64,000 nucleotides of DNA from an uncultured bacterium (GCA_903825105.1 CAIJZI010000006.1:1399-65398); one strand, 5' to 3'; shown: positions 5,945 to 55,943, numbered from the stretch's first letter. Notes: generated by a model from the sequence alone, not told the origin. Program-made: numbers and translations.

Positions 5945-7054
5945 ATGCTGAAAAAGATGTGGTCGACTTGTTCAAGATCAAGTCGTTTTTGGTGTTGGAC
6001 GGGAGTTGGTGTTATCGTGCTCGCTTTCGTTTATCTATTCTTTTTCGCCAACATTTTTCAAACTGAATATCGCTCGCTCGCGGCTGATGCACCGGAAAAA
6101 TTTATTCCATTGCCGGTATTTAATCGCGCTGACTACGACGCGCGCCTCCTCGCCCTCGCACACTTAGGGGTCGGACCGCTAAGTGAACTTAGCGGTCCGA
6201 CCCCTAAGTCGGCCACATCAACAGCGACTTCAACGCCGACGCTCTGGCCCGTAAAGACAGCATATCCAGACGCCGGCGCGATTCTCCCTTTTAAACGCAT
6301 CGTCGCGTACTACGGCAATTTTTATTCAAAAGGAATGGGCGTGCTCGGTGAATATCCTTCTGACCAGATGCTCGATATGCTAAGAAATGAAGTCAAGGTT
6401 TGGTCAGCCGCAGATCCGACCACTCCCGTCGTGCCCGCGATCCAAGAGATCGCTGTCGTCGCGCAGGCGAGTGCTGGCAGAGAAGGGAAATATATTTTAA
6501 GAATGCCAGATGAGCAGATTGATCACGCGCTCGAGCTCGCGCACAAGATAAACGGCATTGTGATTCTCGATGTGCAGGTAGGGAAGAGTACGCTCGAACA
6601 CGAGCTCCCGATGCTCGACAAGTATCTCGCGATGCCTGAAGTGCATCTCGCTATCGACCCAGAATTCTCGATGAAATTTGGCGATAAGCCGGGAACGGTC
6701 ATCGGTACTTTTGATGCAACCGATATCAATTATGCAGTTCAACATCTCGCAACTATTGTAAAAGAAAATAAGCTCGCGCCGAAGATTCTCGTCGTGCACC
6801 GCTTCACTCAAGCGATGGTGACGAATTATGAAAAGATACAGACCTCGCCTGAGGTGCAGATCGTGATGGATATGGACGGCTTCGGCTCGAAGGCAAAAAA
6901 GTTTAATACCTATAAGCGCGTTATTTATCCGGAGCCAGTGCAATTCACGGGCATCAAATTATTTTATAAAAATGACAACAATGCCGACGGCATCCTCTCT
7001 CCCGCAGAAGTGTTAAAAATGCTCCCCACGCCGATTTATATTCAGTATCAATAA
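5945..7054 (+). CDS. Hypothetical membrane-anchored protein (start moved to internal ATG so it does not overlap rpmG)
   Basis: N-terminal TM helix 'WTGVGVIVLAFVYLFFF'. Contains a 46-nt perfect palindrome at 6163-6208, in frame. Confidence 0.45.
   Translation: MLKKMWSTCSRSSRFWCWTGVGVIVLAFVYLFFFANIFQTEYRSLAADAPEKFIPLPVFNRADYDARLLALAHLGVGPLSELSGPTPKSATSTATSTPTLWPVKTAYPDAGAILPFKRIVAYYGNFYSKGMGVLGEYPSDQMLDMLRNEVKVWSAADPTTPVVPAIQEIAVVAQASAGREGKYILRMPDEQIDHALELAHKINGIVILDVQVGKSTLEHELPMLDKYLAMPEVHLAIDPEFSMKFGDKPGTVIGTFDATDINYAVQHLATIVKENKLAPKILVVHRFTQAMVTNYEKIQTSPEVQIVMDMDGFGSKAKKFNTYKRVIYPEPVQFTGIKLFYKNDNNADGILSPAEVLKMLPTPIYIQYQ
6163..6208. repeat. 46-nt perfect palindrome of the same GTCsGAC family inside ORF 5945-7054 (encodes 'LGVGPLSELSGPTPKS')
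   Basis: CTTAGGGGTCGGACCGCTAAGT-GA-ACTTAGCGGTCCGACCCCTAAG. Confidence 0.75.
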
Positions 7055-7088
7055 GCATTTTAAATGTTGGACATCGGAAGTCCAACAT

Positions 7089-7391
7089 TTACTTTTCGCC
7101 CTTCAGAATTATTCGCCCGTCAAATCCGCCGCGGTCGGCGAGCTTTTGGAGACGCAATACCTCCACGTCAGCATACTCGGGTAATCTTTTCAGTGCCTCG
7201 ACGACTTCTATCACATCTGCCAATTCTTCAGGATCGCCAGCTTCGTTAAATTCGCCAACTTCTTCTGCTAATTTTTTAATCAGTTCAGTTTTGTATTCTT
7301 CAGGCGAGGCAATTCTTTTTTCATACGGTACGCCCTTTGCATCCATTATTTCAGGAATGCGATCTCGCACCAGCTTGTTGTAACTTGTCAT
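7089..7391 (-). CDS. MazG-like nucleoside triphosphate pyrophosphohydrolase (house-cleaning NTPase fold)
   Basis: 100-aa all-alpha protein; 'EExGEFNEAGDPEELADVIEV' matches the MazG/HisE EExxE…D metal-binding helices. Confidence 0.55.
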   Translation of the reverse strand: MTSYNKLVRDRIPEIMDAKGVPYEKRIASPEEYKTELIKKLAEEVGEFNEAGDPEELADVIEVVEALKRLPEYADVEVLRLQKLADRGGFDGRIILKGEK

Positions 7392-7409
7392 AAAATAATT
7401 CTATCACGC

Positions 7410-7447: not shown

Positions 7448-7461
7448 GTGGTGTTGTGCCG

Positions 7462-8159: not shown

Positions 8160-8855
8160 ATGAACACAGAAACAAACAAATATTTTTTACCAGCAGCAGT
8201 AATCCTCGCAGGGCTCTTTATCGCCGGCGCAGTATTCTGGAATGGTTCTCATCCAAAGGCGGCGAATCCGACAGACACGAACACCGCGCCAGTTGTCGAT
8301 ATTAAAAATGTGAAGACGGACGGCGATCCTTTTATTGGCAACGCGAATGCGCCTATCGTAATCGCTGAATGGACGGATTATCAGTGTCCATTCTGTAAGC
8401 AGTTTGAAACCACGACGCTCCCACAAATCGAGAAGAATTATATCGAAGCAGGAAAAGTAAAAATCGTGTTTAAAGATTTTCAATTTCTCGGGGCTGACTC
8501 TCTCGTTGACGCAGAATACGCACGCGCAGTTTGGGCGCTCTACCCGGCGCAGTTCCCAGCTTGGCGCGAGGCACTCTTTAGCCAAGAGCCACAAGAAAAT
8601 AGCTTGAACGCGGCGGACAATCTTAAATTTGTTCTTAAGGTAACCGGCTCGGTCGCGGGCATTGATGTAAATAAAGTGACTGCTGATGTGAAAGCGAATC
8701 AAGCGAAATATGATGCCGTAATCGAAGAAGATAAGACAGAGGCAGGGGACTTCGGCATCCAAGCGACACCATCATTTGTCGTTGGTACTCAAATGATCGC
8801 GGGCGCGTACCCGTACGCGACATTCCAGACCGCGATCGACGCACTTCTGAAGTAG
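8160..8855 (+). CDS. DsbA-like thiol:disulfide oxidoreductase (thioredoxin fold, membrane anchored)
   Basis: N-terminal TM helix. 'WTDYQCPFCKQF' has the CPFC active site. A TTGTCA…TAGTAT promoter-like pair lies upstream (~8132-8155). Confidence 0.75.
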   Translation: MNTETNKYFLPAAVILAGLFIAGAVFWNGSHPKAANPTDTNTAPVVDIKNVKTDGDPFIGNANAPIVIAEWTDYQCPFCKQFETTTLPQIEKNYIEAGKVKIVFKDFQFLGADSLVDAEYARAVWALYPAQFPAWREALFSQEPQENSLNAADNLKFVLKVTGSVAGIDVNKVTADVKANQAKYDAVIEEDKTEAGDFGIQATPSFVVGTQMIAGAYPYATFQTAIDALLK

Positions 8856-8865
8856 TTAAAAAAAT

Positions 8866-8902
8866 AAAACCCCGCCCCTTAGGGGCGGGGTTTTATTTTT
8901 TC
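8866..8902. terminator. Bidirectional intrinsic terminator between convergent dsbA-like and dedA genes
   Basis: AAAACCCCGCCCC-TTA-GGGGCGGGGTTTTATTTTTT: a perfect GC hairpin flanked by A-run and T-run. Confidence 0.75.
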
Positions 8903-9504
8903 CCGCGGAGGTAGCTGATTAAAACGGGGAGTAAAGAGAGTGCGACAATGGTGAGAGAGAATGGAAGTACATAATGTTCGCTATTTGGAACTACCGAGCC
9001 GAGGAAGTAGCCAAGCGAGACCATCCCTGCGCCCCAAGTGACGCCACCGATGACGTTAAAAGAGAGAAATCGAGAATAGTGCATCTGTCCCACTCCCGCC
9101 AAGACGGGCGCGAGCGTTCGTACGATCGGCACGAATCGTGCGAGGATAATCGCCCTGCCACCATACGCTTCAAAAAACTTTTGTGTTCGGCCAACATATT
9201 CCTGTTTAAAAAAACGTGAATTTGGCCTTTTAAATAAAGTGTCGCCCATTTTCGCTCCGAACCAGTAGCCCGTAGAATCGCCCAGTATCGCCGCGAGAAT
9301 GACGATTATGACGAGTAGAGGGAATGAGAGAATACTGTGCGCGGCGAGAAGGCCAGCGATAAAGAGGAGAGAATCACCGGGGAAGAAGACTCCGAGTAAG
9401 ATCCCGCTCTCTGCGAAGATAAGAAGAGCAATGCCGATATAGCCACCAAATTTTATAATGGCGAGCGGGTTGAGATGTATACAGGCGTAGAGAAATGCGT
9501 GCAT
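8893..9504 (-). CDS. DedA/SNARE-associated family membrane protein
   Basis: Multi-TM protein; 'ILARFVPIVRTLAPVLAGVGQMHYSRFLSFNVIGGVTWG' is the conserved DedA core. Confidence 0.7.
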   Translation of the reverse strand: MHAFLYACIHLNPLAIIKFGGYIGIALLIFAESGILLGVFFPGDSLLFIAGLLAAHSILSFPLLVIIVILAAILGDSTGYWFGAKMGDTLFKRPNSRFFKQEYVGRTQKFFEAYGGRAIILARFVPIVRTLAPVLAGVGQMHYSRFLSFNVIGGVTWGAGMVSLGYFLGSVVPNSEHYVLPFSLTIVALSLLPVLISYLRGKK

Positions 9505-15267: not shown

Positions 15268-15810
15268 ATGAATCCAACCCAAACAGGTATCGCTGTAGCA
15301 CTCGCGCTCGTTGTTGTTATCTTCTTTTTCGTCTTTGACGGGATGTCATTGTTTCGTCAGTCGGCCTCAGCACCAACACAAGAAATAACAGCAACCACAA
15401 CTGATCAATCTATGGCTACAACTTCAACAAATTCTGTACAAGCAAATGTTACCGAACTCCAGATAACTGACGAAGTCGTCGGTACTGGCGCTGTGGCAAA
15501 AGCGGGCGACACAGTTGTCGTCGCATATACGGGTAGCTTCACAAACGGAAAAGTCTTCGACAGCTCAGTCGGGAAGGCTCCTATCGCAATCGTGACTTGC
15601 CCAAAGGGAGTCACGACCGGACTTTGTATGAATCTTGGCGCAGGGCAGGTGATTAAGGGTTGGGACGAAGGACTTGTCGGTATGAAAGAGGGCGGGAAGA
15701 GAAAGCTTGTTATCCCCGCATCGCTTGGGTACGGCCCAAATGACTATGGATCAATCCCGGGTAATTCGACACTCGTCTTCGAAGTCGAACTCATAAAAGT
15801 CGCGAAATAA
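15268..15810 (+). CDS. FKBP-type peptidyl-prolyl cis-trans isomerase (membrane anchored)
   Basis: 'GDTVVVAYTGSFTNGKVFDSS', 'GAGQVIKGWDEGLVGMKEGGKRKLVIPASLGYGPN' and 'GNSTLVFEVELIKV' are the canonical FKBP signature blocks. Confidence 0.8.
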   Translation: MNPTQTGIAVALALVVVIFFFVFDGMSLFRQSASAPTQEITATTTDQSMATTSTNSVQANVTELQITDEVVGTGAVAKAGDTVVVAYTGSFTNGKVFDSSVGKAPIAIVTCPKGVTTGLCMNLGAGQVIKGWDEGLVGMKEGGKRKLVIPASLGYGPNDYGSIPGNSTLVFEVELIKVAK

Positions 15811-15855
15811 CTTGGGTGTCCGACACCCAAGTAACTTGGAGGTCGGACCTCCAAG
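15811..15855. repeat. Double-hairpin palindromic element (GTCsGAC-core family), intergenic copy
   Basis: CTTGGGTGTCCGACACCCAAG-TAA-CTTGGAGGTCGGACCTCCAAG. The first unit is identical to the units inside leuS at 55443-55489. Confidence 0.75.
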
Positions 15856-15890
15856 TGGAAGGGAAGAAAAATAAAAAAAGAAAGGGCGCG

Positions 15891-15921
15891 ATTTACTTAG
15901 CGGCGAGACACCTAAGTAAAT
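15891..15921. repeat. Palindromic hairpin ATTTACTTAG-(CGGCGAGACAC)-CTAAGTAAAT inside a duplicated terminator segment
   Basis: Perfect 10-bp inverted repeat. The flanking 'AAAAAAGAAAGGGCGC' is repeated 40 nt downstream, where an intact terminator stem follows instead. Confidence 0.5.
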
Positions 15922-15923
15922 TA

Positions 15924-15966
15924 AATAAAAAAGAAAGGGCGCATCCCGCTTCGCGGAATGCGCCCT
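15924..15966 (-). terminator. Intrinsic terminator for the 15974-16552 gene
   Basis: GGGCGCATCCCGC-TTC-GCGGAATGCGCCC hairpin with a T-run on the minus strand. Confidence 0.6.
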
Positions 15967-15973
15967 AGAGTGT

Positions 15974-16552
15974 TTAGTATGTCACAGTGTGCAACACCCG
16001 GATCTTTTCCCTGTATTTGGAAAGATCCAAGACCCCGGCGGTGCACGCGTCGACGACATACTTTCGTAGTTTGAGCCGTGTTGTTACGCCGTTCACAATG
16101 TTCGGTACCGCCATTGCGGAGGCGCCGTATCCTGTATACGAGAGCATATTGGCTCCGGCGAACATCATTGAGCCAACTCCTACACCGACTCCGCCTCCAA
16201 GGCCGCCCGTCATGCCGTCGATCATGCCCATTGCCAAGTAATTCGGCTGTACATTTCGAGTATGCTCCTGACACGCCGGCGTTATCGCCGCCATGACGGC
16301 AAGTGGTTCGGCGAGTTGCACCTCGAGTTGTGCTTCGTTCGTCACTGTCTTGGAAAGACGGACGGCGAAGCTGGGCTGCATGTTCTTGAGCCTGAAGGCG
16401 TATCCGTATGAAACAATCGCGATCTGTTCGCTGTCGGGCAGTGTGACGAGGATCTTGACGGGCTCCTTCTTTTCCTTGGCAGAAACCGTCGCTGGAACTG
16501 CCAGAATCACCATCGCCGTTGCGATGATGCAAAACACTGCGAACTTCTTCAT
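15974..16552 (-). CDS. Secreted glycine-rich hypothetical protein
   Basis: Start moved to 'MKKFAVFCIIATAMVILAVPATVSA' (signal peptide), preceded by AGGAGAG. C-terminal 'GGLGGGVGVGVGS' Gly-rich segment. Confidence 0.5.
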   Translation of the reverse strand: MKKFAVFCIIATAMVILAVPATVSAKEKKEPVKILVTLPDSEQIAIVSYGYAFRLKNMQPSFAVRLSKTVTNEAQLEVQLAEPLAVMAAITPACQEHTRNVQPNYLAMGMIDGMTGGLGGGVGVGVGSMMFAGANMLSYTGYGASAMAVPNIVNGVTTRLKLRKYVVDACTAGVLDLSKYREKIRVLHTVTY

Positions 16553-16687
16553 ATAACTCTCCTTTGGGGAAGCCGCCGAGGGCGGCGTTGTTGGTGATAA
16601 AAGGTACAACCATTTATAAAGATACACGACCCGCGCGTTTTGTCAAGCGCTTGACAGAATTGACAAGATAGTGTATGTATGTAGAAG

Positions 16688-21152: not shown

Positions 21153-22421
21153 ATGAGTGCGATATCTTTTGCGATAGAAAAGCGCGCGCCACTTCGTGGC
21201 GCGCGTGTCGGCATTCTCACCACGCCGCACGGCGTAATTCACACACCTGCTTTTGCGCCAGTAGGAACAAAAGCGAGTGTGAAAGGTATTTTGCCTAGTG
21301 AAGTCGCGAAGCTCGGTGCTGAAGTGGTGCTCGCGAATACCTATCACCTCTATCTTCAGCCGGGCGAGCAGATTGTGAAAGAGGCTGGTGGCCTCGCGAA
21401 GTTTATGGGCTGGTCGGACTCGTCTTCGCCTTTGGGCTCCGGCGCGGCGAAGCCAACCATCACCGATTCAGGCGGTTTCCAAGTGTTTTCGCTCGGTGCT
21501 GCTTTCGGCAAAAAAATCTCCAAATTTGATGGAATGAGGGATTTCGTAAATCCATCATCTGATAAACCAGTAATTTTTGACGAAGAGGTCGCGAGTCAAC
21601 ACGGCCAACTCGCGATTATTGACGACGAAGGCGTCTCGTTTACCTCGCACATCGACGGCTCGCTTCATCGCTTTACGCCAGAGCGATCGGTGGAGATTCA
21701 GCACGCGCTTGGGGCAGACATTTTCTTCGCTTTTGACGAATGCACTGCGCCAACAGAGACCTATGAATATCAGAAAGATGCTATGGAACGCACACATCGC
21801 TGGGCGGAACGGAGTTTGAAGGCACATCGACAAATGGAATATGCCCGCCTTCGTGAGAACTCCGGCGTGGCGAAGCAAGCAATTTTCGGCATCGCACAAG
21901 GCGGGCAGTTTGATGACTTGCGAAAGTTGAGTGCGAAGACAATCGCAGAAATGGGCTTCGATGGATTCGGACTCGGCGGATCGTTTAGTAAAAAGTATGG
22001 CGATGATTCTCTCGAATCAGCGCTTCAAATGCTTAAAGAATTGCCAGACACTATGCCAGTGCACGGCCTTGGTATTGGAGAGCCGGGCGATATCCTCGCC
22101 AGTATTGCCGCAGGTGTTGACCTTTTTGACTGTGTAGCGCCGACACGCCTCGGTAGACATGGCACAATTTATACTAAAAATGGTTTAGTTCATTTGAAAA
22201 ATGAAAAATATAGAAATGATTTTTCGCCACTGGGCGAATCAGGGTTTACCCATGCGTATGTATCGCATCTGATTAGAAGTGGGGAAATGCTCGGTGCGAC
22301 GATCGCCTCGATGCATAATCTGAAATTTATTTTGGATCTTGTCGCTCACGCGCGGCAGGCGATTTTAAACGATACTTTTGAGGAATATCGTGCAGATTTT
22401 GTAAATAAATATTATGGCTAA
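21153..22421 (+). CDS. tgt: Queuine tRNA-ribosyltransferase (with ~36-aa insertion carrying a palindromic repeat)
   Basis: 'TPHGVIHTPAFAPVGTKASVKG', 'LANTYHLYLQPG', 'TDSGGFQVFSLG', 'FAFDECT', 'LFDCVAPTRLGRHG'. 422 aa versus ~375 typical. Confidence 0.85.
   Translation: MSAISFAIEKRAPLRGARVGILTTPHGVIHTPAFAPVGTKASVKGILPSEVAKLGAEVVLANTYHLYLQPGEQIVKEAGGLAKFMGWSDSSSPLGSGAAKPTITDSGGFQVFSLGAAFGKKISKFDGMRDFVNPSSDKPVIFDEEVASQHGQLAIIDDEGVSFTSHIDGSLHRFTPERSVEIQHALGADIFFAFDECTAPTETYEYQKDAMERTHRWAERSLKAHRQMEYARLRENSGVAKQAIFGIAQGGQFDDLRKLSAKTIAEMGFDGFGLGGSFSKKYGDDSLESALQMLKELPDTMPVHGLGIGEPGDILASIAAGVDLFDCVAPTRLGRHGTIYTKNGLVHLKNEKYRNDFSPLGESGFTHAYVSHLIRSGEMLGATIASMHNLKFILDLVAHARQAILNDTFEEYRADFVNKYYG
21526..21562. 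repeat. Degenerate copy of the 'FVNPSS' palindromic element inside tgt (in frame)
   Basis: TGATGG-AATGAGG-GATTTCGTAAATC-CATCATC. Shares the 18-mer TTTCGTAAATCCATCATC with the uvrB copy. Confidence 0.5.
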
Positions 22422-24498
22422 TTTCAAATTACACTTACCGTTTCAGCCGGCGGGCGATCAGCCCGAAGCGATTAAAAAGCTGAATGAAGGCCTCAAAAAA
22501 GGCTTGCATCATCAAACACTTTTCGGCGTGACGGGGAGCGGGAAGACCTTCACGATGGCGAATGTTATCGCACAGAATGATAAGCCGACACTCGTCCTCG
22601 CGCACAACAAGACACTTGCTGCCCAGCTCGCGCAGGAGTATCGCGAATTTTTCCCCGAGAATGCGGTGCATTATTTCGTTTCCTATTATGATTATTATCA
22701 ACCAGAGGCGTACATCGCGCACTCTGACACCTATATTGAAAAAGAGGCGATGATTAATGCTGAGATTGATCGGCTTCGCCACGCTGCGACGCAGGCTCTG
22801 CTCACGAGGAAAGATGTGATTATTGTTGCGTCAGTCTCGGCGATTTATGGGCTCGGTTCGCCAGAAGAATATGAAAAAGTGCATGTGAAAATTGAAAAAG
22901 GTGCACCAGAAAATAGAGCTGCGTTAATCAGAAAACTGGTTGCCATTTATTTTGAGAGAACCAACGCCGATTTGAATCCAGGGCAGCTGCGTGCGATTGG
23001 TAACTCGCTTGAGTTTATGCCGGTGAATGAACGCGTCTTGTATCGCGTTGTCTTCGATGGTGATGCCATCTCGCGCGTCGAACAGCTCGACCCAGTCTCG
23101 CGTGCAAAAGTCGCGGAGCCACAGTCAATCTTCGTCTTCCCGGCGAAGCACTTCGTCACGAGTGAAGAAGAGCGAATCAGAGCGATTGAAGATATTAAAC
23201 TCGAGCTAGAAGAACAACTCGCGAAGTTTAAAAGAGAAGAAAAACCGCTCGAAGCAGAGCGACTGAAGCGCCGCACCTTAAGCGACCTCGCGCTGATTCG
23301 CGAGATCGGTTACACGAACGGCATCGAGAATTATTCTCGCCACTTTGACGGGAGAAAGGCGGGCGAGCCGCCATACACATTGCTCTCCTATTTCCCCAAA
23401 GATTTTTTAACTGTTATCGACGAGTCGCATGTGACCGTACCGCAGATTGGCGGGATGTATGCAGGAGATAGATCAAGAAAAAATGTGCTGATTGAATTCG
23501 GATTCCGTTTGCCGTCGGCGCTCGATAATCGTCCGCTTATGTTTGAAGAATTTGAAAAATGCGTGGGGCAAGTTATTTATACGAGCGCGACGCCGGGCGC
23601 ATATGAAAAAGCGCATTCTGAACAAGTCGTTGAACAAATTATTCGTCCGACTGGTCTTATCGACCCAGAGCTTATCGTGCGCCCTGTCTCTGAAGGCACA
23701 GAACCCATGATGGGTTTCGTAAATCCATCATCAAATGATGGATTTACGAAACCAAAATATCGAGGGCAGATTGCTGATTTTATCGACGAAGCAGAAAAGG
23801 TGATTAAAACGGGTGGGCGCGTTTTGGCTACAACACTCACCAAACAAATGGCAGAAGACCTCTCCTCATTCCTGCGCGATCGCGGCATCAAAGCTGAATA
23901 TTTGCATTCTGATATTAAAACGATTGACCGCATCGACATTCTTACCAATTTCCGCAAAGGTGATTTCGATTTACTCGTCGGCGTGAACCTGCTGCGCGAA
24001 GGGCTCGACCTGCCTGAAGTAGAGCTCATCGGCATTCTCGACGCTGACAAAGAAGGATTCCTCCGTAGCGAAGTTTCTCTTATCCAAACCATCGGTCGCG
24101 CCGCTAGAAATGTTTTAGGCCGCGTGATTCTCTATGCCGATGTGATGACGGGCTCCTTGGAGCGCGCCATCGGCGAGACGAATCGTCGTCGCGATATTCA
24201 GATCGCCTACAACACAAAGCACGGCATCACGCCGAAGACGATTCATAAAGAAATCCACGACATCGCTGCCTCAATGCGCACCGAGCATCAAAAGACGATT
24301 GATGAGTTGCTCGTCTTGGATACGATTGCGTATAAAGAAGATCCAAAAGAGTTTATAAAGAGAAAGAGGGAAGAGATGGCTGAAGCAGTCGAGAAATTGG
24401 ACTTCGAAACCGCCGCGCTTATTCGTGATGAAATTTATAAGCTTGAAGGCACCGGTCCCAAATCTAAAAAATCGCGCGGGCGAAGACTTTTGTCGTGA
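22414..24498 (+). CDS. uvrB: Excinuclease ABC subunit B
   Basis: 'GVTGSGKTFTMANVI' Walker A, 'HYFVSYYDYYQPEAY' beta-hairpin, 'EYLHSDIKTIDRIDIL…' helicase C region, C-terminal UVR-interaction helix. Overlaps the tgt stop by 8 nt. Confidence 0.9.
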   Translation: MANFKLHLPFQPAGDQPEAIKKLNEGLKKGLHHQTLFGVTGSGKTFTMANVIAQNDKPTLVLAHNKTLAAQLAQEYREFFPENAVHYFVSYYDYYQPEAYIAHSDTYIEKEAMINAEIDRLRHAATQALLTRKDVIIVASVSAIYGLGSPEEYEKVHVKIEKGAPENRAALIRKLVAIYFERTNADLNPGQLRAIGNSLEFMPVNERVLYRVVFDGDAISRVEQLDPVSRAKVAEPQSIFVFPAKHFVTSEEERIRAIEDIKLELEEQLAKFKREEKPLEAERLKRRTLSDLALIREIGYTNGIENYSRHFDGRKAGEPPYTLLSYFPKDFLTVIDESHVTVPQIGGMYAGDRSRKNVLIEFGFRLPSALDNRPLMFEEFEKCVGQVIYTSATPGAYEKAHSEQVVEQIIRPTGLIDPELIVRPVSEGTEPMMGFVNPSSNDGFTKPKYRGQIADFIDEAEKVIKTGGRVLATTLTKQMAEDLSSFLRDRGIKAEYLHSDIKTIDRIDILTNFRKGDFDLLVGVNLLREGLDLPEVELIGILDADKEGFLRSEVSLIQTIGRAARNVLGRVILYADVMTGSLERAIGETNRRRDIQIAYNTKHGITPKTIHKEIHDIAASMRTEHQKTIDELLVLDTIAYKEDPKEFIKRKREEMAEAVEKLDFETAALIRDEIYKLEGTGPKSKKSRGRRLLS
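23713..23753. repeat. 41-nt near-perfect palindrome inside uvrB, in frame (encodes 'GFVNPSSNDGFTKP')
   Basis: GGTTTCGTAAATCCATC-ATCAAAT-GATGGATTTACGAAACC: a 17-bp stem that falls in a region absent from E. coli UvrB. Confidence 0.65.
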
Positions 24499-24581
24499 GC
24501 TTGACAGTAGAATTTGGTTGTGTATACTAATATACGGAAGGTAAGAGGCATCCAAATCTCTCAATGAAGGAGGAAATTCCT

Positions 24582-24725
24582 ATGTTGGTGGAATGGGTAA
24601 ATCAGTTTTCGCTACCTGTTCAGATTTTGTTGACCGTCGGCATTACTGCTGTGTTTTGCGCCCTTGTGCTGGTTGTAATAAGCGCTGTGTGTTTCGTTCT
24701 GTCCAAAGGCGGACGCAATCCGTAA
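24582..24725 (+). CDS. Small single-TM membrane protein (47 aa, not in ORF track)
   Basis: AGGAGG is 6 nt upstream of the ATG. A TTGACA…TATACT promoter lies at ~24501-24530. Translation is 'MLVEWVNQFSLPVQILLTVGITAVFCALVLVVISAVCFVLSKGGRNP'. Confidence 0.35.
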   Translation: MLVEWVNQFSLPVQILLTVGITAVFCALVLVVISAVCFVLSKGGRNP

Positions 24726-24876
24726 TTTACAAGAGCTCGCTAGCAATAGCGGGCTCTTTTACTTTTGTTAGCAAGGTCTCGCCTTGATACAAGAAGCTCA
24801 TTTCATAAGGTGCCTTAATTTTATGGCTTATTTGCTTGATATTTTATACCTCACAAACGAGCATTTTGAAAAACGC

Positions 24877-24905
24877 TTGACAAATAAAATTGAGTATGCT
24901 AAACT
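24877..24905 (+). promoter_or_regulatory. Sigma70-like promoter (TTGACA-17-TAAACT) preceding an ORF-free transcript
   Basis: Consensus -35 hexamer with 17-nt spacing to a 4/6 -10 hexamer. Confidence 0.35.
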
Positions 24906-24907
24906 TT

Positions 24908-25166
24908 ATACAGATTCGTAATTGAGAGCAAAACTGCAGATGGCAGGTCTGACTCTCCGAATCTACTAGAAGTGAAATCTTCTAGGGGCGGTCCGTTATC
25001 TCACACGGACAACTCTTGAAAGACCTAGCACATAAATACATAAGCTAGACTTTCTTTGATCCTTAGGAGGATGCCAAAATGGCTTGAGGGAGATATGTGA
25101 GATTCCCTGACAAACTCCTCTCCGTTTTACCGCCCCGCACAAAATGTGCGGGGTTTTGCTTTTGTG
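24908..25166 (+). ncRNA. Candidate structured small RNA (~250 nt) of unknown class
   Basis: No ORF longer than 10 codons. Multiple local hairpins (CTAGAAG-TGAAAT-CTTCTAG; AGGGA…TCCCT). Ends in intrinsic terminator CCCCGCAC-AAAAT-GTGCGGGG-TTTTGCTTTTGTG, just upstream of uvrA. Confidence 0.3.
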
Positions 25167-25220
25167 CTATACTCATACCGTACCTGCCCCGCCACGGGCA
25201 GGAGTTTCCATATTTAAACA

Positions 25221-27962
25221 ATGCCTAAAAAAACAGCAAAAGAATCCCTCGACGATGCTCGGGACAAGGAACACAATTTCAAGCACGGGAGCGACCCCGA
25301 CGCGCGACAAGCGGTCGGGGCTGACTGGCTTACCGTGAAGGGCGCGCGTACCCATAATTTAAAAAATATTAATGTCGAGATGCCACGCGGCGCGATGACG
25401 GTGATCACGGGCGTTTCGGGGAGTGGTAAATCATCGCTCGCTTTTGACACTATTTTTGCCGAAGGGCAACGACGCTATGTTGAATCGCTTTCTGCCTACG
25501 CGCGACAATTTTTAAATCAAATGGCGAAGCCCGATGTCGATGAGATCACCGGACTCTCGCCCGCGATTTCTATTGACCAAAAATCGCGTTCGAATAATCC
25601 GCGTTCGACGGTTGCGACGGTTACAGAAATTTATGATTACTTGCGTGTGCTCTACGCACGCGCCGGTCAGCCGTATTGCGTGAATCATGATGTGCCAATC
25701 GTACGACTTTCAAAAGAAGAAATGATTAAGATGGTTTTCTCGCGGATTGAATCGAAAAGGCACTTAGGAAAGACTTCAAATACGGATTCTGGAAGTCTGA
25801 CTTCTGAAGCGCCTGTGGTTATGGGCGTTGTGGTTGATAAAAGTGCGGTGACGATTTATGCGCCAGTCGTGGTAGGGCGCAAAGGGGAATATTATCAAAT
25901 GCTTTATGACCTGCTCGGGAAAGGTTTTGAAAGAGTGATGATCGACGGGAAGGTGCAGTCGCTACGCGAAAAAGTAATTCTTGATAGAAATAAAAGGCAC
26001 GATATCGACGCGATTGTCGACACGATTTATGTTTCAGAATTTATTCGCTCGACTGATGGCGCGCGCGAACGACTCTCTGAAGCGCTTGAGCTCGCGCTGA
26101 AAGAAACGGACGGCTTGGTGAAAATTGGCCACGCTGATGGCACACTCGAAACCTTATCGTCAAAATTTATTTGTCCTGAAGACGGCGCGTCATTCCCTGA
26201 GGTTGAACCTCGCCTCTTTTCATTTAACTCACCCTACGGCGCATGCCCAGAGTGTCACGGACTCGGCACCGAATCATTCTTCTCTGATGCTCCGTGTCCG
26301 GTCTGCGAAGGGAAGAGACTTCGTCCGGAAGCACTTCGTGTGTATTTAAAAAGTAAAAAAGATAAAACGCTCGGGAAAAATATCGTGGATTTTACAAACA
26401 TGTCGATTCGCGAAGCAAAAGAATTTGTCGACTCGATTGAACTTTCAGAAATGAAAAAGGATATCGCATTGCCGATTTTAAAAGAAATAAATAATCGCCT
26501 CACCTTTATGCTCGATGTCGGGCTCGATTATTTAACACTCAATCGAAGTGCTGCGACTCTCTCTGGCGGCGAGAGTCAACGCATCCGCCTCGCTTCGCAG
26601 CTCGGCAGTGGGCTCACGGGCGCTTTGTATGTGCTCGACGAGCCAACGATTGGTCTCCACCAACGCGACAATGACCGACTGATTAAAACATTGCTCACGC
26701 TGAAAGAGCTTGGCAATACGATTGTTATCGTCGAGCACGATGAGGACACGATTTATTCTGCAGATTATATTGTCGACATTGGTCCGGGCGCGGGTGTCCA
26801 CGGCGGCCGCGTAGTTGAGTCAGGATGGTTGGATGACCTTTTAACTGCCAAGAGCAATGAAACAGGCTCGTTGACTCTTGCTTATTTACGCGGTGAGCGG
26901 GAGATAGTAATGCCTGAGTCGCGACGCGAAGGCGAGCGCGGGTGGATCAAGGTGCGCGGAGCGACTTTGCACAATTTGGTAAATCAAAATATCGATGTCC
27001 CGCTTGGTAAATTGGTCTGCATCACGGGCGTTTCGGGGAGCGGGAAGTCGACCTTTCTCTATCATATTTTGCATAAAAACATTGACGCGCGATTCGGTAG
27101 GAAAGAGGCGAAGCTACAAAATGTCGCTTCGCTCACCGGTAGCGAATATCTCGGGCGCGCCGTTTTAATCGATCAATCGCCGATCGGCAGAACGCCGCGC
27201 AGCAACCCTGCGACCTACACTGGCGCATTCACGCACATTCGCGATCTTTTTGCCGCGACTTCTGAAGCGCGTGCGCGAGGCTGGAAGCCGGGCAGATTTT
27301 CTTTTAATGTTTCTGGCGGTCGCTGCGAAGCGTGTCAGGGCAATGGCTCGATCGCAGTTGAAATGCATTTCTTGCCGACGGTATATGTGACCTGTGATGT
27401 CTGCGAAGGAAAACGATTTATGAAAGAAACACTCGAAGTCACCTATCACGGGAAAAATATTTATGAAGTTCTCCAAATGACGGTTGAAGAAGCCGAAAAG
27501 TTTTTTAAAGATATTCCGGCAATTTCCGATCGTCTCGCCTCGCTGAATGCGACTGGCCTTGAATATTTAACACTCGGACAAAGCGCGACAACACTTTCGG
27601 GCGGAGAAGCACAGCGCGTGAAGATCGCGAGCGAGCTCTATCGGCCGATGCCGATGAAGACGATTTATCTCCTCGATGAACCAACGGTCGGTCTGCATTA
27701 TGAAGATGTGAAAAAATTGATTGAAATTTTGCAGGAGCTCGTACGCCGCGGCAACACTGTTGTTGTTATTGAACACAATCTCGATGTGATAAAAAATGCT
27801 GATTATATTATCGACTTCGGGCCCGAAGGCGGCGAAAAGGGCGGCAGAATAGTCGCGAAGGGCACGCCTGAAGAAGTTGCCGATACTAAAGGCTCCTACA
27901 CGGGCGAGTATTTAGCGAGAGTTTTGCATAACCATGGAAAAAAGCGATCTAAAAAAGTCTAA
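25221..27962 (+). CDS. uvrA: Excinuclease ABC subunit A
   Basis: Two ABC modules ('[15 protein letters not shown]', '[15 protein letters not shown]'); signature '[12 protein letters not shown]' / '[12 protein letters not shown]'; zinc-finger Cys pairs ('CPECHG', 'CEACQG'). Confidence 0.9.
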
Positions 27963-29253
27963 CCTACCGGACAGTCCCGGTATTTATATCTTCAAGCAGG
28001 GAAGAAAGATTTTGTATATCGGCAAGGCGACCAGCTTACGCGATCGTACGCGTTCTTATTTTGACGATGATTTAATCATTACGCGAGGCCCTCGCATTGT
28101 CGATATGGTGACGAAGGCCGATAAAATTTCGCATGAGGTGACGCCAACGGTGCTCGAAGCTCTTGTGCGCGAAGCGGCATTGATTAAAAAATATCATCCG
28201 ATAGCAAACACGGACGGCAAAGATGATTCAACATTTCTATATGTTGTTATTACGGAAGAAAAAATTCCGCGGGTGCTCACGCTTCGTGGCAAAGAAATTG
28301 ATTTTAAAAACCGAAAAACAATCGGCAAAAGGTCAGACCTTAATGCAAGTTCCTCAAGGTCTGACCTTAATCCGAGGCCGATTGTTTTTCGTGCGATTTA
28401 CGGCCCATTCCCGAGTGGTGCACAACTTAAAGAAGCTTTGCGAATTATTCGGCGCATCTTTCCATTTTTTGACACGCCGAAGCCTGTTGAAACAAAAAAT
28501 AAACATCAAGCGGCAAACATAGAGTTTAATAAACAGATTAAACAGTATCCGACTAATTTCGACGCTAAAGAATATCGCCGCACGATTCGGAGCGTGATGC
28601 TTTTCTTAAGTGGGCGCGCAAAAGATTTGAGAATAAAACTTGAAAAAGAAATGCACACGGCGAGCGAAGAAGAGCGATTTGAAGATGCTGCAGAACTGCG
28701 TCGACAACTTTTTGCATTGAATCATATACAAGATGTCTCGCTGATTAAGGATGAGAATCTTGAACGCAGCCCTTCGACAAGCTCAGGGCGATTCGCTTCG
28801 CGAATCGAAGCCTATGACACCGCGCATTTGTCTGGCACGAATGCGATTGGGGTAATGACGGTGGTCATCGACGGCACGCCAGTTAAAAAAGAATATCGCA
28901 CCTTTCGCATCCGTGGCAATGTGGGACTTCCGATGTCCCACATGAAAAACGACGATATTGCCTCATTAAAAGAAATTTTATCGCGTCGCTTTAATCATCC
29001 AGAATGGCAGTTCCCAGAAGTGATTGTCGTTGATGGTGGCAAGACACAGAAAAAAGCAGCAGAAGATTTTTTGAAAGAAAAGGATTTAAAAATTCCTGTC
29101 GTCGCGGTCGTGAAAGATGAAAGGCACCGCCCGCGCGAAGTCTTGGGCGCGCGTGTAGGGAAAATCTCTGAAGCAGACGCTGTTCTAGCGAATAGCGAAG
29201 CGCATCGATTCTCCCTTGTTCGTCACCGCCAAGCCCGCTCGCGTTTGGTATAA
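27934..29253 (+). CDS. uvrC: Excinuclease ABC subunit C, short form lacking the C-terminal HhH region
   Basis: GIY-YIG 'PGIYIFKQGRKILYIGKATSLRDR'; UVR helix 'EERFEDAAELRRQLFALNHI'; RNase H-like endonuclease region 'IEAYDTAHLSGTNAIGVMTVV'. 439 aa. Overlaps uvrA by 29 nt. Confidence 0.7.
   Translation: MEKSDLKKSNLPDSPGIYIFKQGRKILYIGKATSLRDRTRSYFDDDLIITRGPRIVDMVTKADKISHEVTPTVLEALVREAALIKKYHPIANTDGKDDSTFLYVVITEEKIPRVLTLRGKEIDFKNRKTIGKRSDLNASSSRSDLNPRPIVFRAIYGPFPSGAQLKEALRIIRRIFPFFDTPKPVETKNKHQAANIEFNKQIKQYPTNFDAKEYRRTIRSVMLFLSGRAKDLRIKLEKEMHTASEEERFEDAAELRRQLFALNHIQDVSLIKDENLERSPSTSSGRFASRIEAYDTAHLSGTNAIGVMTVVIDGTPVKKEYRTFRIRGNVGLPMSHMKNDDIASLKEILSRRFNHPEWQFPEVIVVDGGKTQKKAAEDFLKEKDLKIPVVAVVKDERHRPREVLGARVGKISEADAVLANSEAHRFSLVRHRQARSRLV
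28329..28370. repeat. Double-hairpin element (GTCwGAC core) in frame inside uvrC
   Basis: AAGGTCAGACCTTAA-TGCAAGTTCCTC-AAGGTCTGACCTTAA, which encodes 'RSDLNASSSRSDLN'. Confidence 0.55.
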
Positions 29254-29260
29254 TAAATAT

Positions 29261-30247
29261 ATGCAAACCGTCGTTGGGATACTGCGAGGCGGGCCTTCGC
29301 GTGAACACGAGGTCTCGCTTAAAACGGGCGCGGCGATAATCGCGAACCTGCCTGAAGACCGATTCGTCGCGCGCGATATTTATATTGATAAAAACGGCGT
29401 TTGGCACGATCGAGGAATCCCGACAACTCCAGATAAAATTCTGCGACAAGTCGATGTGATTTTAAACGGTCTTCATGGCGACTACGGTGAAGACGGCGAG
29501 GTGCAAAAACTGCTCGAACAATTCAGTATTCCTTTTGCCGGTTCAGATTCATTTGGCTCGTATCTCGCGATGCATAAACTAATGTCGAAGAAGCGTGCGC
29601 AGGAGGCGGGACTGCTCACGCCAAAATTTCATTACATCGAAAATATTTCAGACAGCGAAAAAGCGGCAATAGAAATCACGCGAGCCTTTCATCAGCCCGT
29701 TATTGTAAAGCCGGTGAGTTGGGGCTCTTCGATCGGCGTCTCAATAGTTGGCGGCTATGTGCCGGTGCTTCAATCAATTGAAAAACTTTTTGGAGATGGG
29801 GCTAAAAGCGTTTTAGTAGAAGAATATATTCGCGGCAAGGAGGCGACGGCTGGAGTGGTCGAAGGACTGCGCGGAGAGAAGTTGTATGCACTCCCAACAG
29901 TTGAAATTGTTGCTCCAGAAAATGATTTCTTTTCATATAATTCAAAATATTCGGGGAAATCGCGCGAAGTCTGCCCGGGTAAATTCTCGCGCGTGATGTC
30001 TGAAGAGCTGCAGCGCGCCGCGCGCGTGATGCACCGGGCTCTTGGCCTGCGCCATTATTCGCGTAGCGATTTTATTGTCGCACCGCGGAAGGGCGAGCTT
30101 GGTGCAGAGAGTGTGTATTATCTCGAAACAAATACGCTTCCCGGACTCACTTCAGAATCGTTATTGCCAAAATCTCTCGCCGCCGTCGGCGTCTCCTTCT
30201 CTGATTTCTTATCACATCTGGTCAATTTAGCACTAGGGAAAAATTGA
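29261..30247 (+). CDS. ddl: D-alanine--D-alanine ligase (ATP-grasp)
   Basis: 'VVGILRGGPSREHEVSLKTG', 'DVILNGLHGDYGEDGEVQKLLE', 'FHQPVIVKPVSWGSSIGVS', 'ETNTLPGLT'. Start set at 'MQTVVG'. Confidence 0.75.
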   Translation: MQTVVGILRGGPSREHEVSLKTGAAIIANLPEDRFVARDIYIDKNGVWHDRGIPTTPDKILRQVDVILNGLHGDYGEDGEVQKLLEQFSIPFAGSDSFGSYLAMHKLMSKKRAQEAGLLTPKFHYIENISDSEKAAIEITRAFHQPVIVKPVSWGSSIGVSIVGGYVPVLQSIEKLFGDGAKSVLVEEYIRGKEATAGVVEGLRGEKLYALPTVEIVAPENDFFSYNSKYSGKSREVCPGKFSRVMSEELQRAARVMHRALGLRHYSRSDFIVAPRKGELGAESVYYLETNTLPGLTSESLLPKSLAAVGVSFSDFLSHLVNLALGKN

Positions 30248-32346: not shown

Positions 32347-32388
32347 GCATATAGACAATAGCAGACATATCGCGATATTCACAAATTG

Positions 32389-32461: not shown

Positions 32462-32537
32462 GGTTTATTGTGGCGCCGTAATAGGAATTACGGCATCCTA
32501 CAAAATTATACTCGCCGATTACGGCTCGTTAATTTTG

Positions 32538-32610
32538 TGGACCTGAGCGGACTTGAACCGCTTACCTCGTCAATGCGAATGACGCGCTCTACCAGATGAG
32601 CTACAGGCCC
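32538..32610 (-). tRNA. tRNA-Ala (anticodon CGC)
   Basis: Minus strand: GGGCCTG-TA-GCTC-ATCTGGTA-GAGC-G-CGTCA-TTCGCAT-TGACG-…-GCGGTTCAAGTCCGC-TCAGGTCC-A. Has the G3:U70 pair. Confidence 0.7.
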
Positions 32611-53448: not shown

Positions 53449-53503
53449 GATGTAAGGTACAAGGTTTAAGTATATGAAATTTCTTTTCACTTACACCTTA
53501 CTG
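53447..53503. repeat. Inverted-repeat element upstream of leuS, related to a segment inside leuS
   Basis: GTAAGGTACAAGGTTTAAGT…ACTTACACCTTAC. Its reverse complement shares AAGGTGTAAGTG and CTTAAACCTTG with 54201-54254. Confidence 0.5.
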
Positions 53504-53516
53504 CTTATAACTGCTC

Positions 53517-55943
53517 ATGGAATACGATCATAAAAAAATTGAAAAAGAGGCTCAAGAAAAGTGGAAGGAGCTCGGGCTCTATAAAGCGGATTTAACTGAT
53601 GAAAAAGATCCGTATTATCTGCTTGTTGAATTCCCGTATCCTTCGGGCGATCTCCATATCGGACATTGGTACGCCTTCGCGGTGACTGACATCTATGCGC
53701 GCATGCTTCGCGCTCGCGGGAAGAATGTGTTGTTCCCGATTGGCTTTGACGCCTTCGGCCTGCCCGCAGAAAACGCCGCGATGAAGCACGGCGCGAACCC
53801 ACGCGATTGGACCTATAAAAATATGGAGTCGATGCGCGCGCAGTTCGCCTCGATGGGGAGCTCTTTTGATTGGTCAAAAGAGGTGATCACCTGCGAGCCA
53901 GATTATTATCAATGGACACAGTGGCTCTTCTTAAAATTGTTTGAGAATAATCTCGCCGAACATCGCGAAGCGGCGGTGAAGTGGTGCCCTCATGATCAAA
54001 CAGTGCTCGCGAACGAGCAGGTTACCGACGGCTGCTGCGAGCGCTGTGGCACACCAGTTGAAGAAAAGAGACTCACCCAATGGTTTTTGAAGATTACCGA
54101 TTATGCGGAGCGATTACTCGAAGGCCTTGAGAGACTTCCGTGGCGCGAAGAAATAAAAACGGCGCAGAGAGCGTGGATAGGGAAATCGGAGGGGGCGAAA
54201 TTAAGGTTTGAGGTGCAAGGTGTAAGTGGTAAGGATAATCCCTTAAACCTTGAACCTGCCGCCTGTATTGAGGTGTTCACGACTCGACCAGACACGATCT
54301 TCGGCGCGACGTATGTAGTGCTCGCGCCAGAACACTCTCTCGTTTCATCACTACTGTCGAGTGTTTCAAATACAAAAGAAGTCCAAGAATATATAAATGT
54401 TACGAAGAAAAAGACTGAACGCGAACGCAGCGAGAATAAAGATAAGACCGGCGTGAAATTAGAAGGTGTTTCAGCTATCAACCCAGCGACAAAAAAAGAA
54501 ATCCCGATTTATGTCGCCGATTATGTGCTCGGCTCCTACGGCACTGGCGCGGTGATGGCGGTTCCGGCACACGACGAACGCGACTGGGACTTCGCGAAGA
54601 AATTTAATCTGCCGATTGTCGAAGTAATAAAAAATGAAGAAGCGACAAATTTGTACACAGGTGACGGTGTGCTTATTAACTCCGGAGAATTCGATGGTAG
54701 AGATAATCGCGACGCGATGAATGATATTGTCGCTTATGTTGGTGGCGAGAAGACGACGCAATACAGAATTCGTGATTGGCTCGTGAGTCGTCAGCGTTAC
54801 TGGGGCTGCCCGATACCGATTGTCTATGATCCTGCTGGTGAGCCGCACGCGATTCCTGCAGAACATTTGCCGTGGCTCTTGCCGACTGATGTCGACTTTA
54901 ATCCGACCGGTGAAGCGCCGCTCGCCTCGTCTAAAGAGTTGAAAGAGCGCGTGATAAAAATCTTCGGTGAAGGCTGGACGCCAGAATATGACACGCTCGA
55001 CACCTTCGTCGATTCTTCGTGGTACTTCCTTCGCTATCTCGATCCAAAAAGCGTTGAGCATTTTTCTGATGCAAATTTGATGAAAAAATGGATGCCGGTG
55101 CACCGCTATTCTGGAGGAAGCGAACATACGACGATGCATGTACTCTATGCACGATTCTTTATGAAGGCGCTTTATGATCTCGCGCTCGTCCCCGTCGACG
55201 AACCATTTAACGAGCGTTTTAATCGTGGTCTTATTATGGGTCCTGACGGAGCGAAGATGAGCAAGTCAAAAGGGAATGTAGTGAACCCAGACGAATTTGT
55301 TCTGAAGTACGGAGCTGACGCCGTGCGGCTCTATCTCGCTTTTATCGGCCCCTACAACGAACCAGGGAATTATCCTTGGAATCTCGAAGGCGTCGCCTCG
55401 ATGCGGAAGTTCTTGGAGCGCATCGTGCGGCTCTCAGAGAAACTTGGGTGTCCGACACCCAAGTCTGACTTGGGTGTCGGACACCCAAGTGGAATACCAC
55501 AGGCGCTGGCGCGCGCGAGCGCCAAAGTTTCTGGAGATGGCGATCGATTTAAGTTTAATACCGGAGTCGCGGCGCTGATGATCTTGATGAATGAATGTGA
55601 AGCCGTTGAAACTATCTCGATAGCAGACTTTTCTACACTGCTCATTCTACTCGCGCCATTCGCTCCGCATCTCGCAGAAAGCCTTTGGGAAAAAATCGGG
55701 CAGTCTGGATCGGTGCACGAACAGGCTTGGCCAGCATTTTCTCGAGATGCAGTGAGCGAGAGCGAGATCATCGTTCAGGTGATGGGGAAAAAACGCGGGA
55801 GCATTCTTCTTTCAGTAGAAGCGACAGAAGCCGAGGCAGTAGCAGAAGCTTTAAAACTCGAAACTGTTATAAGAGCGCTGGACGGCAAAGAGCCAAAACG
55901 GACCATTTTTGTTGCGGGTAAAATCATAAATTTTGTGGTATAA
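53517..55943 (+). CDS. leuS: Leucine--tRNA ligase
   Basis: 'PYPSGDLHIGHWYAF' HIGH motif; 'KMSKSKGNVV' KMSKS motif; CP1 editing domain; 808 aa. Contains two in-frame repeat-derived segments. Confidence 0.9.
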   Translation: MEYDHKKIEKEAQEKWKELGLYKADLTDEKDPYYLLVEFPYPSGDLHIGHWYAFAVTDIYARMLRARGKNVLFPIGFDAFGLPAENAAMKHGANPRDWTYKNMESMRAQFASMGSSFDWSKEVITCEPDYYQWTQWLFLKLFENNLAEHREAAVKWCPHDQTVLANEQVTDGCCERCGTPVEEKRLTQWFLKITDYAERLLEGLERLPWREEIKTAQRAWIGKSEGAKLRFEVQGVSGKDNPLNLEPAACIEVFTTRPDTIFGATYVVLAPEHSLVSSLLSSVSNTKEVQEYINVTKKKTERERSENKDKTGVKLEGVSAINPATKKEIPIYVADYVLGSYGTGAVMAVPAHDERDWDFAKKFNLPIVEVIKNEEATNLYTGDGVLINSGEFDGRDNRDAMNDIVAYVGGEKTTQYRIRDWLVSRQRYWGCPIPIVYDPAGEPHAIPAEHLPWLLPTDVDFNPTGEAPLASSKELKERVIKIFGEGWTPEYDTLDTFVDSSWYFLRYLDPKSVEHFSDANLMKKWMPVHRYSGGSEHTTMHVLYARFFMKALYDLALVPVDEPFNERFNRGLIMGPDGAKMSKSKGNVVNPDEFVLKYGADAVRLYLAFIGPYNEPGNYPWNLEGVASMRKFLERIVRLSEKLGCPTPKSDLGVGHPSGIPQALARASAKVSGDGDRFKFNTGVAALMILMNECEAVETISIADFSTLLILLAPFAPHLAESLWEKIGQSGSVHEQAWPAFSRDAVSESEIIVQVMGKKRGSILLSVEATEAEAVAEALKLETVIRALDGKEPKRTIFVAGKIINFVV
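54201..54254. repeat. Imperfect inverted-repeat element inside leuS (in frame)
   Basis: TTAAGGTTTGAGG-[TGCAAGGTGTAAGTGGTAAGGATAATC]-CCTTAAACCTTGAA, which encodes 'LRFEVQGVSGKDNPLNLE'. Confidence 0.45.
55443..55489. repeat. Double-hairpin palindromic element inside leuS, in frame (encodes 'LGCPTPKSDLGVGHPSG')
   Basis: CTTGGGTGTCCGACACCCAAG-TCTGA-CTTGGGTGTCGGACACCCAAG. Unit is identical to the intergenic copy at 15811. Confidence 0.75.

Follow-up and report, generated by a model that had tools for sequence, protein, structure and literature searches.

The stretch analysed here, referred to as the window, comprises 64,000 nucleotides of an uncultured bacterium (GCA_903825105.1 CAIJZI010000006.1:1399-65398), whereby all positions are counted from its first letter. 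It harbours a family of short hairpin-forming palindromes that lie between genes as well as in frame within protein-coding genes, and which is probably explained by a system of the type known from repetitive extragenic palindromes (REPs), their inverted doublets (REPINs) and the REP-associated tyrosine transposase (RAYT). By direct reading, the window contains three exact doublets of the 23-nt palindrome ACTTRG-NN-GTCSGAC-NN-CYAAGT, located in the open reading frame (ORF) 5912-7054, in leuS and between the FKBP gene and a convergent gene. For the pattern CTTRGNNGTCSGACNNCYAAG six matches were obtained where 0.02 were expected, and none of 100 shuffles reached six. A relaxed scan added a degenerate unit, which had been missed by the original prediction, and a composite hairpin resides within uvrC. 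The features concerned are as follows.

5912..7054, plus strand: host gene 1, encoding a 380-aa membrane-anchored protein with no Pfam match
6162..6209, no strand: inverted doublet in ORF 5912-7054 (units 6162-6184 and 6187-6209, spacer GA)
15810..15856, no strand: intergenic doublet after the FKBP gene, two unlike perfect 23-nt units
15895..15917, no strand: degenerate single unit ACTTAGCGGCGAGACACCTAAGT, with three mismatches to the pattern
26361..26366, plus strand: empty site in uvrA (25221-27962), uninterrupted codons GAT AAA
27934..29253, plus strand: host gene 2, uvrC, 439-aa short form with GIY-YIG, UVR and RNase H-like domains
28313..28389, no strand: composite hairpin in uvrC, 77 nt, in frame, 14-nt loop
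53517..55943, plus strand: host gene 3, leuS, 808 aa
55442..55490, no strand: inverted doublet in leuS (units 55442-55464 and 55468-55490, spacer CTG)

Hairpin units of the window

The doublet in ORF 5912 is built from the units ACTTAGGGGTCGGACCGCTAAGT and ACTTAGCGGTCCGACCCCTAAGT, the arms of which are perfectly complementary. It had been described as a perfect palindrome of positions 6163-6208, a description which holds for the arms and is slightly overstated for the central GA, as this is not self-complementary. Each of the single units possesses one G-G or C-C mismatch, while pairing across the doublet is perfect, and the fold predicted for the doublet as single-stranded DNA is a single long hairpin (-28.2 kcal/mol, z -9.0). 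It is read in frame and encodes HLGVGPLS-E-LSGPTPKS. The leuS doublet is a 49-nt perfect palindrome, likewise in frame, which encodes KLGCPTPK-SD-LGVGHPS and is predicted to form a single hairpin (-30.0 kcal/mol, z -11.7); around its spacer CTG, the junction AAGTCTGACTT constitutes a third GTCNGAC core, which is reminiscent of the short unit found in uvrC. The intergenic doublet begins at the final base of the FKBP stop codon and consists of ACTTGGGTGTCCGACACCCAAGT (15810-15832, NN = GT/AC), a single A and ACTTGGAGGTCGGACCTCCAAGT (15834-15856, NN = AG/CT), and for this arrangement two separate hairpins are predicted (-20.3 kcal/mol, z -6.9). The degenerate unit downstream of it lies 3 nt past the stop codon of the convergent minus-strand ORF 15921-16613. 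A sequence identity between the leuS and the intergenic copies was reported earlier for 21 nt and in fact extends over 23 nt. The rule that reverse complementing the first unit gives the second was found to apply to ORF 5912, leuS and uvrC, but not to the intergenic doublet, the units of which differ in their stems (GT/AC versus AG/CT).

As claimed in the original prediction, the coding copies keep the reading frame; the further claim that the same element had been inserted in the same frame does not hold true. The leuS doublet has its first unit in frame A (LGCPTPK) and its second in frame B (LGVGHPS), while in ORF 5912 the order is B and then A, with spacers of 3 nt and 2 nt, respectively. 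The resemblance of the resulting peptides stems from the fact that both arise from one palindrome when it is read in two frames.

The uvrC copy, initially placed at 28329-28370, is real; however, it neither contains the same 23-mer nor belongs to the same sequence family. It consists of an outer 14-bp inverted repeat (GAAAAACAATCGGC / GCCGATTGTTTTTC) enclosing two inverted 13-mers of the form AAGGTC(A/T)GACCTT, namely AAGGTCAGACCTT (28329-28341) and AAGGTCTGACCTT (28356-28368), and a hairpin of 15 + 13 bp is predicted for it as single-stranded DNA (-27.6 kcal/mol, z -8.1). It is only loosely related to the main family, with which it has the GTCNGAC core and the doublet layout in common. A 13-nt palindrome with such a core, GAAGTCTGACTTC, is also present within uvrA (25792-25804) and may be either what is left of a short unit or a coincidental match.

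Besides these elements, the window contains a 43-nt perfect palindrome, AAAAAATAAAACCCCGCCCCTTAGGGGCGGGGTTTTATTTTTT (8859-8901), between the convergent ORFs 8160-8855 (plus strand) and 8893-9504 (minus strand), which has the appearance of a bidirectional intrinsic terminator and bears no relation to the hairpin family. Four tRNA genes are located at 30292-30364 and 32273-32610, of which three form a minus-strand cluster and the fourth is encoded on the plus strand; an Rfam scan of the window returned four tRNAs only and no family match for the hairpins.

The hairpin family and the RAYT-like gene in related genomes

A scan with the 23-mer pattern, covering one genome per bacterial and archaeal species, extended the family well beyond the window, as at least 115 loci from 71 assemblies carry it, compared with a chance estimate of about 17 for the whole collection. 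The repetition of the palindrome is hence clearly above chance, and the dispersed family postulated from the window alone, with its six matches therein, was borne out by further copies elsewhere. For 112 of the 115 loci listed the labels are of Patescibacteria type or unclassified. The groups named among the matches listed include Giovannoni-, Zambryski-, Ryan-, Nomura-, Vogel-, Yonath-, Wolfe-, Azam- and Niyogibacteria as well as Paceibacterota, next to the generic label 'Saccharibacteria' on third-party bins. The three exceptions among the matches listed are third-party bins, too, and one of them (L039) possesses the same transposase gene that is described below. The family is native to the Paceibacteria/Parcubacteria branch of the Patescibacteria. 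Up to seven copies per single assembly occur among the matches listed, and one or two stem variants dominate in each genome. Scanning of 2.9 million viral contigs (IMG/VR) yielded four matches (L117-L120) with one exact 23-mer each, so that the element is not phage-borne as a rule.

Comparison of the copies yielded the consensus yC-ACTTRG-NN-GT-CSG-AC-NN-CYAAGT-Gr, which describes a stem of 10-11 bp and a loop of 1-3 nt. Complementarity at the two free stem positions and at the R/Y position was found for 126 of 151 copies. When reduced to 75 distinct sequences, 90.8% of the cells pair, each of the free positions shows all four Watson-Crick pairs, G-U (G-T) pairs are nearly absent, and the stems covary with a score of 0.342 as compared to 0.113 after shuffling, a value as high not being reached in any of 500 shuffles. 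This covariation, together with the near-absence of G-U pairs, points to a DNA hairpin or to a copying symmetry at the DNA level rather than to selection at the level of RNA. In 41 of the 151 copies the flanks lengthen the palindrome by at least 3 bp, where about two such cases were expected; in the composition of the flanks, C is weakly preferred at -1 and G at +1. The motif CGTC is confined to the NN = AC variant, where it forms part of the stem.

With respect to genomic position, 60 of the 153 exact copies (about 39%) lie at least 30 nt inside ORFs of at least 120 codons, or 62 of 153 by a stricter test. Another 50 follow a stop codon within 60 nt, mostly within 17 nt, 15 are found only upstream of a start and 28 elsewhere. 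All three reading frames are used by the intragenic copies, with 35 in frame A (L-G-x-P/R-T-x-K), 20 in frame B (L-G-V-G-x-P-S) and seven in frame C (T-W-x-S-D-x-Q). The CTTGG/CCAAG variant is free of stop codons in every frame, while the CTTAG/CTAAG variant closes frame C. Read along the coding strand, the central base is C in 36 and G in 24 cases, which is no clear bias, so that no strand preference can be derived.

Many loci were found to contain two hairpin copies about 680 bp apart, with a gene for a protein of 206-235 aa in between. A homologue of this gene is present in 21 of the 115 loci listed. In its 19 full-length cases one copy lies 37-46 nt (75 nt in one case) before the ATG and/or one copy abuts or overlaps the stop codon, as TA-ACTT; a few of these loci show an exact match at one end and a divergent or decayed copy at the other. 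In the relatives the gene is hence bracketed by the very palindromes that are dispersed over their genomes. The encoded protein matches Pfam Y1_Tnp (PF01797) with 34 bits as compared to a cutoff of 23, and both the H-x-H motif and the tyrosine within an AYVNLN helix are invariant. An AlphaFold2 model of one member (P0443; mean predicted local distance difference test score, pLDDT, 80.6; predicted template modelling score, pTM, 0.81) has its best match among PDB structures in 4er8_A, the REP associated tyrosine transposase of E. coli bound to a REP hairpin (E = 2e-6), followed by the TnpA proteins of IS608 and ISDra2. The protein family comprises at least 7,887 clusters and is named 'transposase' by NCBI and 'REP element-mobilizing transposase RayT' by JGI.

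The window is connected to such loci by its own sequence variants. The 23-mer common to its leuS and intergenic copies flanks a RAYT-like gene in L049 (Giovannonibacteria), and both 23-mers of the ORF 5912 doublet flank a RAYT-like gene in L110, a locus of the metagenome-assembled genome (MAG) nzgw457, which is also the source of locus L036. Assembly CAZZGX contains two paralogous RAYT-like genes (L074, L106), each with different flanking palindromes, those of L106 being of the CTTAGCAGCTAAGCTTATAAGT type. This suggests separate pairs of transposase and repeat in one genome.

Insertion into host genes and turnover at fixed sites

The cleanest case of an insertion is provided by uvrA. The L036 contig of MAG nzgw457 is syntenic with window positions 21210-27400 at about 73% nucleotide identity, and its uvrA carries a hairpin doublet encoding the 14 residues DLAVRPLSALSGPT exactly where the window reads the uninterrupted codons GAT AAA. 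The empty allele of the window possesses no pre-existing palindrome. For the three host genes of the window, orthologue alignments likewise identified LeuRS, UvrC and ORF 5912 orthologues with and without the respective segments, and these alignments show the copies in leuS, uvrC and ORF 5912 to be lineage-specific insertions in variable regions, as was initially proposed.

In ORF 5912 the doublet encodes part of a variable linker between an N-terminal hydrophobic segment and a conserved C-terminal domain. The insert is shared with P0259, a fragment that is 78% identical, and is absent from the more distant homologues P0343 and P0256. UvrC of the window has 23 extra residues, while the shortest orthologues read DFKNH-NFRAIYGPF and lack the segment; many other orthologues contain a hairpin-coded (K/R)SD(L/F) segment, and at the DNA level the uvrC sites of L121 and L122 are occupied by long hairpins whose stems differ and whose 14-nt loop is related. 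The window uvrC lacks the C-terminal helix-hairpin-helix region, as do its Paceibacteria orthologues (406-455 aa), and the last 38 nt of the gene overlap with the beginning of the D-Ala-D-Ala ligase ORF as listed (29216-30247).

In LeuRS the insert corresponds to residues 642-658, located between two helices and before the anticodon-binding domain. The linker following KFLER...L has a modal length of 13 aa, found in 43 of 120 orthologues, and is about 25 aa long in the window; other orthologues have hairpin-type peptides encoded by other stems at this place, such as EKLGSPTSKSDLEVGLPQ and LGGSTAKSDLAVEPPS. The AlphaFold2 model of LeuRS is poor overall (pLDDT 62, pTM 0.38); it places residues 643-659 as a coil that connects the helices 623-642 and 660-676 and in which pLDDT drops below 50 at residues 648-656. 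Of the suggestion that the insert occupies a surface loop, the position in a coil between two helices is thus retained, while surface exposure is not shown by this model. About half of the closest LeuRS orthologues (e.g., P0006, P0010 and P0012, and also those of L116 (501-3392), L124 and L125) are 935-975 aa long and include a NUDIX domain (PF00293), which in L116 lies inside the enzyme, after the editing domain, by the listed domain order; the 808-aa LeuRS of the window has none. The orthologues P0083 and P0099 possess an additional alpha/beta-hydrolase domain.

At the leuS site, five genomes carry five different hairpins, all of them perfect and long. Loops of TCA and GAA are seen directly in L123 and L124, and a second palindrome family, GGACATCSGATGTCC (encoding the peptide GHPMSKSAEDIGCP), occupies the site in L125 as well as in the proteins P0013, P0031, P0076, P0113 and P0119. 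A comparable situation was identified within the transposase gene itself. Among the best 120 family members (P0391-P0510), half have frame-A hairpin peptides, one or two per protein, around residues 60 and 152, and most of the others have loop variants, for instance LGGSTAK or LGGETPK, at the same two places; back-translation of these peptides suggests that TCG or GAA may replace CSG in the loop. The internal hairpins start at 5981 and 6263 in L063, at 2421 and 2700 in L076 and at 1695 and 1974 in L110, and in every locus examined (L063, L076, L110 and L039) they share the stem variant of the flanking ones. In the transposase model the encoded peptides form low-confidence loops.

Hairpins at resident sites, both in leuS and in the transposase gene, therefore change along with the variant that is specific to the genome. 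Point mutation is insufficient for such a turnover of variants, as four to eight coordinated changes would be required. Turnover instead requires a site preference with re-insertion, gene conversion or an enzyme-mediated exchange of hairpins. A further-reaching idea, put forward tentatively and considered rather unlikely at present, is that hairpins and transposase form a class-wide inherited partnership in which the hairpins are rewritten in place. If true, the Y1 enzyme or a copying process coupled to it would swap or homogenise resident hairpins beyond adding copies, and hairpins within the reading frame of the transposase could give feedback control on the enzyme.

Mode of spread, alternative explanations and known systems

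A REP/REPIN-RAYT-type system is regarded with good confidence as the explanation of the hairpin family. By analogy with the RAYT of E. coli and the TnpA proteins of IS200/IS605 elements, the transposase would recognise the folded hairpin on single-stranded DNA, cut beside it and rejoin it elsewhere, catalysis being assumed from the same analogy. This would result in the spread of single units and of inverted doublets that fold as one long hairpin, and the surviving copies would be the harmless ones, namely those after stop codons or those within genes where the frame is kept, no stop codon is introduced and a loop or linker is affected. For the genome studied here, the transposase gene would be expected elsewhere, outside the window. 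Several observations weigh against this explanation. A tblastn search of the 64-kb window did not find a RAYT-like gene. The transposase fails the curated cutoff of the NCBIfam model REP_Tyr_transpos (NF047646), reaching 22.9 bits as compared to 80, and neither a single sequence nor a profile of 19 sequences gave anything significant when searched against PDB chains. The hairpins carry no GTAG or CGTC end tag as known from the described REP families; the flank composition of the family copies did not reveal a conserved flanking tetranucleotide, and no rule for the target site or the cleavage site could be derived. Finally, the five hairpins at the leuS site and the genome-specific internal hairpins of the transposase gene are not explained by plain random transposition.

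One alternative is the formation of the palindromes without any transposase, whereby intrastrand template switching (quasi-palindrome correction) would combine with gene conversion and the Y1 gene would merely be one site of accumulation. Such arm-to-arm copying would yield just what is seen in the ORF 5912 doublet and in L124, where imperfect units form perfect doublets; it likewise agrees with the rarity of G-T pairs, which implies a symmetry at the DNA level, with different yet always perfect hairpins at orthologous sites, and with the excess of palindromes extended by their flanks. It does not account for identical 23-mers at unrelated loci within and between genomes, for a uvrA site that is filled in the relative and empty in the window without a prior palindrome, nor for hairpins at fixed positions on both ends of the Y1 gene in 19 loci, which is the known layout of REP transposases, and this explanation was judged improbable. 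An equally low probability was assigned to the idea that the hairpins are not mobile DNA but selected cis-acting elements, i.e., terminators, mRNA stabilisers or translation-pausing or regulatory mRNA structures. A third of the copies lie just past stop codons, some have A and T tracts on either side in the manner of bidirectional terminators (L012, L035, L040 and L043), and several lineages carry long hairpins with covarying stems at the same leuS and uvrC sites. Yet on the plus strand no T tract accompanies the intergenic doublet of the window (for the degenerate unit at 15895, a T-rich run does follow on the minus strand), no Rfam family was matched, and G-U pairs are nearly absent although they would be tolerable under selection at the RNA level. 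Moreover, one and the same sequence is found in genes unrelated to each other and is read in any of the three frames; 43 of 120 LeuRS orthologues manage with a linker of 13 aa, and UvrC in its shortest orthologues is devoid of the segment.

That gene and hairpins represent an ordinary autonomous insertion sequence of the IS200/IS605 type, with solo hairpins as footprints or solo ends, appears the most remote of these explanations. The Y1_Tnp fold and the structural matches to the TnpA proteins of IS608 and ISDra2, next to RAYT, are in line with it. However, RAYT rather than IS608 is the best structural match, the same palindrome is found on both ends of the gene instead of distinct left and right ends, no tnpB adjoins the transposase gene in the one locus checked (L065), and the hairpins far outnumber the gene, which is present in 21 of 115 listed loci. 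Excision of IS200/IS605 elements is precise, and hairpin footprints are not known to result from it. A miniature inverted-repeat transposable element of an insertion sequence with a DDE transposase, which would have terminal inverted repeats and a target-site duplication, does not fit, since comparison of the filled with the empty uvrA site reveals no direct duplication and the whole unit is a single hairpin. A CRISPR array, an operator of a transcription factor and a restriction site were rejected in view of stems that covary at unrecognised positions, of copies lying in frame within genes and of the association with a transposase.

A REP/REPIN-RAYT-type origin of the family would imply that elements of this kind persist even in streamlined, ultra-small bacteria with genomes of about 1 Mb, and across a whole class. 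Most work on REP/RAYT systems has been done in Proteobacteria, and there is as yet no agreement on what these systems do. With about 40% of the copies being intragenic, the family would provide a concrete source for some of the lineage-specific insertions in Patescibacteria proteins, including LeuRS, UvrA and UvrC, and for annotation the motif may be used to flag protein segments of 8-17 residues as element-derived rather than functional. The hairpins within the transposase gene and the turnover at orthologous sites would constitute a natural data set on the co-evolution of a REP population and its transposase.

When compared with the REP/REPIN-RAYT systems of E. coli, Pseudomonas and Stenotrophomonas, the likeness comprises dispersed short hairpin palindromes (six exact and one degenerate unit within 64 kb), inverted doublets that fold as one long hairpin, as in ORF 5912 and leuS, a preference for sites between convergent genes and directly behind stop codons, a gene for a Y1 HUH transposase with repeats on both sides (the 'REPtron' arrangement, here seen in related genomes), genome-specific sequence variants and a protein whose best structural match is 4er8. 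This system is therefore a closer relative than the Rickettsia palindromic elements (RPEs) of the RPE-1 type, with which the original prediction had compared the elements, as in relatives the hairpins bracket a RAYT-like Y1 gene. In contrast to known REPs, the palindrome is near-perfect with a loop of 1-3 nt, the conservation of its core is not confined to one genus but extends over many candidate orders of one class, and about 39% of the copies are intragenic, whereas REPs are predominantly extragenic. The protein differs, too, being longer (206-235 aa with a C-terminal helical extension) and scoring below the NCBIfam RAYT cutoff, and most of the transposase genes contain two in-frame hairpins at fixed sites.

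From IS200/IS605 elements such as IS608 and ISDra2, with which the Y1 HUH fold and presumably the recognition of subterminal hairpins on single strands are shared, the system is set apart by ends that are identical palindromes, by the lack of tnpB (L065) and by solo hairpins spread far from the gene. With RPE-1 it has in common that palindromic repeats lie in frame in protein genes and are tolerated in surface regions. RPE-1 elements are 100-150 bp long, are not known outside Rickettsia and have no known transposase. The units described here differ from them in measuring 23 nt, the doublets 47-49 nt and the uvrC composite 77 nt, and in their link to a Y1 transposase.

REPs within genes as such have been reported before, both as singles and as dimers that lie in frame and encode about 10-30 residues, with the excision-repair genes uvrA, uvrB and uvrC, among further repair genes, as recurrent hosts (Di Nocera et al. 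2013, PMC3733652). In that survey, which covered Proteobacteria, Cyanobacteria, Chloroflexi and the PVC group, RPE-4 and RPE-6 of Rickettsia were assigned to the CGTC-tagged REPs, a dedicated transposase was not found for the CGTC/RPE elements, and intragenic copies were a minority confined to few species (Di Nocera et al. 2013, PMC3733652). A search of the literature, subscription journals being outside its coverage, found nothing relevant on REP, REPIN or RAYT in Patescibacteria, the candidate phyla radiation (CPR) or Parcubacteria, which agrees with the initial impression that such elements had not been described there. Like the GTAG- and CGTC-type intragenic REPs, the present elements reside in repair genes, namely uvrC in the window and uvrA in a relative; unlike them, they differ in sequence, are untagged and are accompanied by a dedicated transposase. 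While REP/RAYT is thus a kind of mobile DNA already known, what is new is an untagged, class-wide and often intragenic variant of it.

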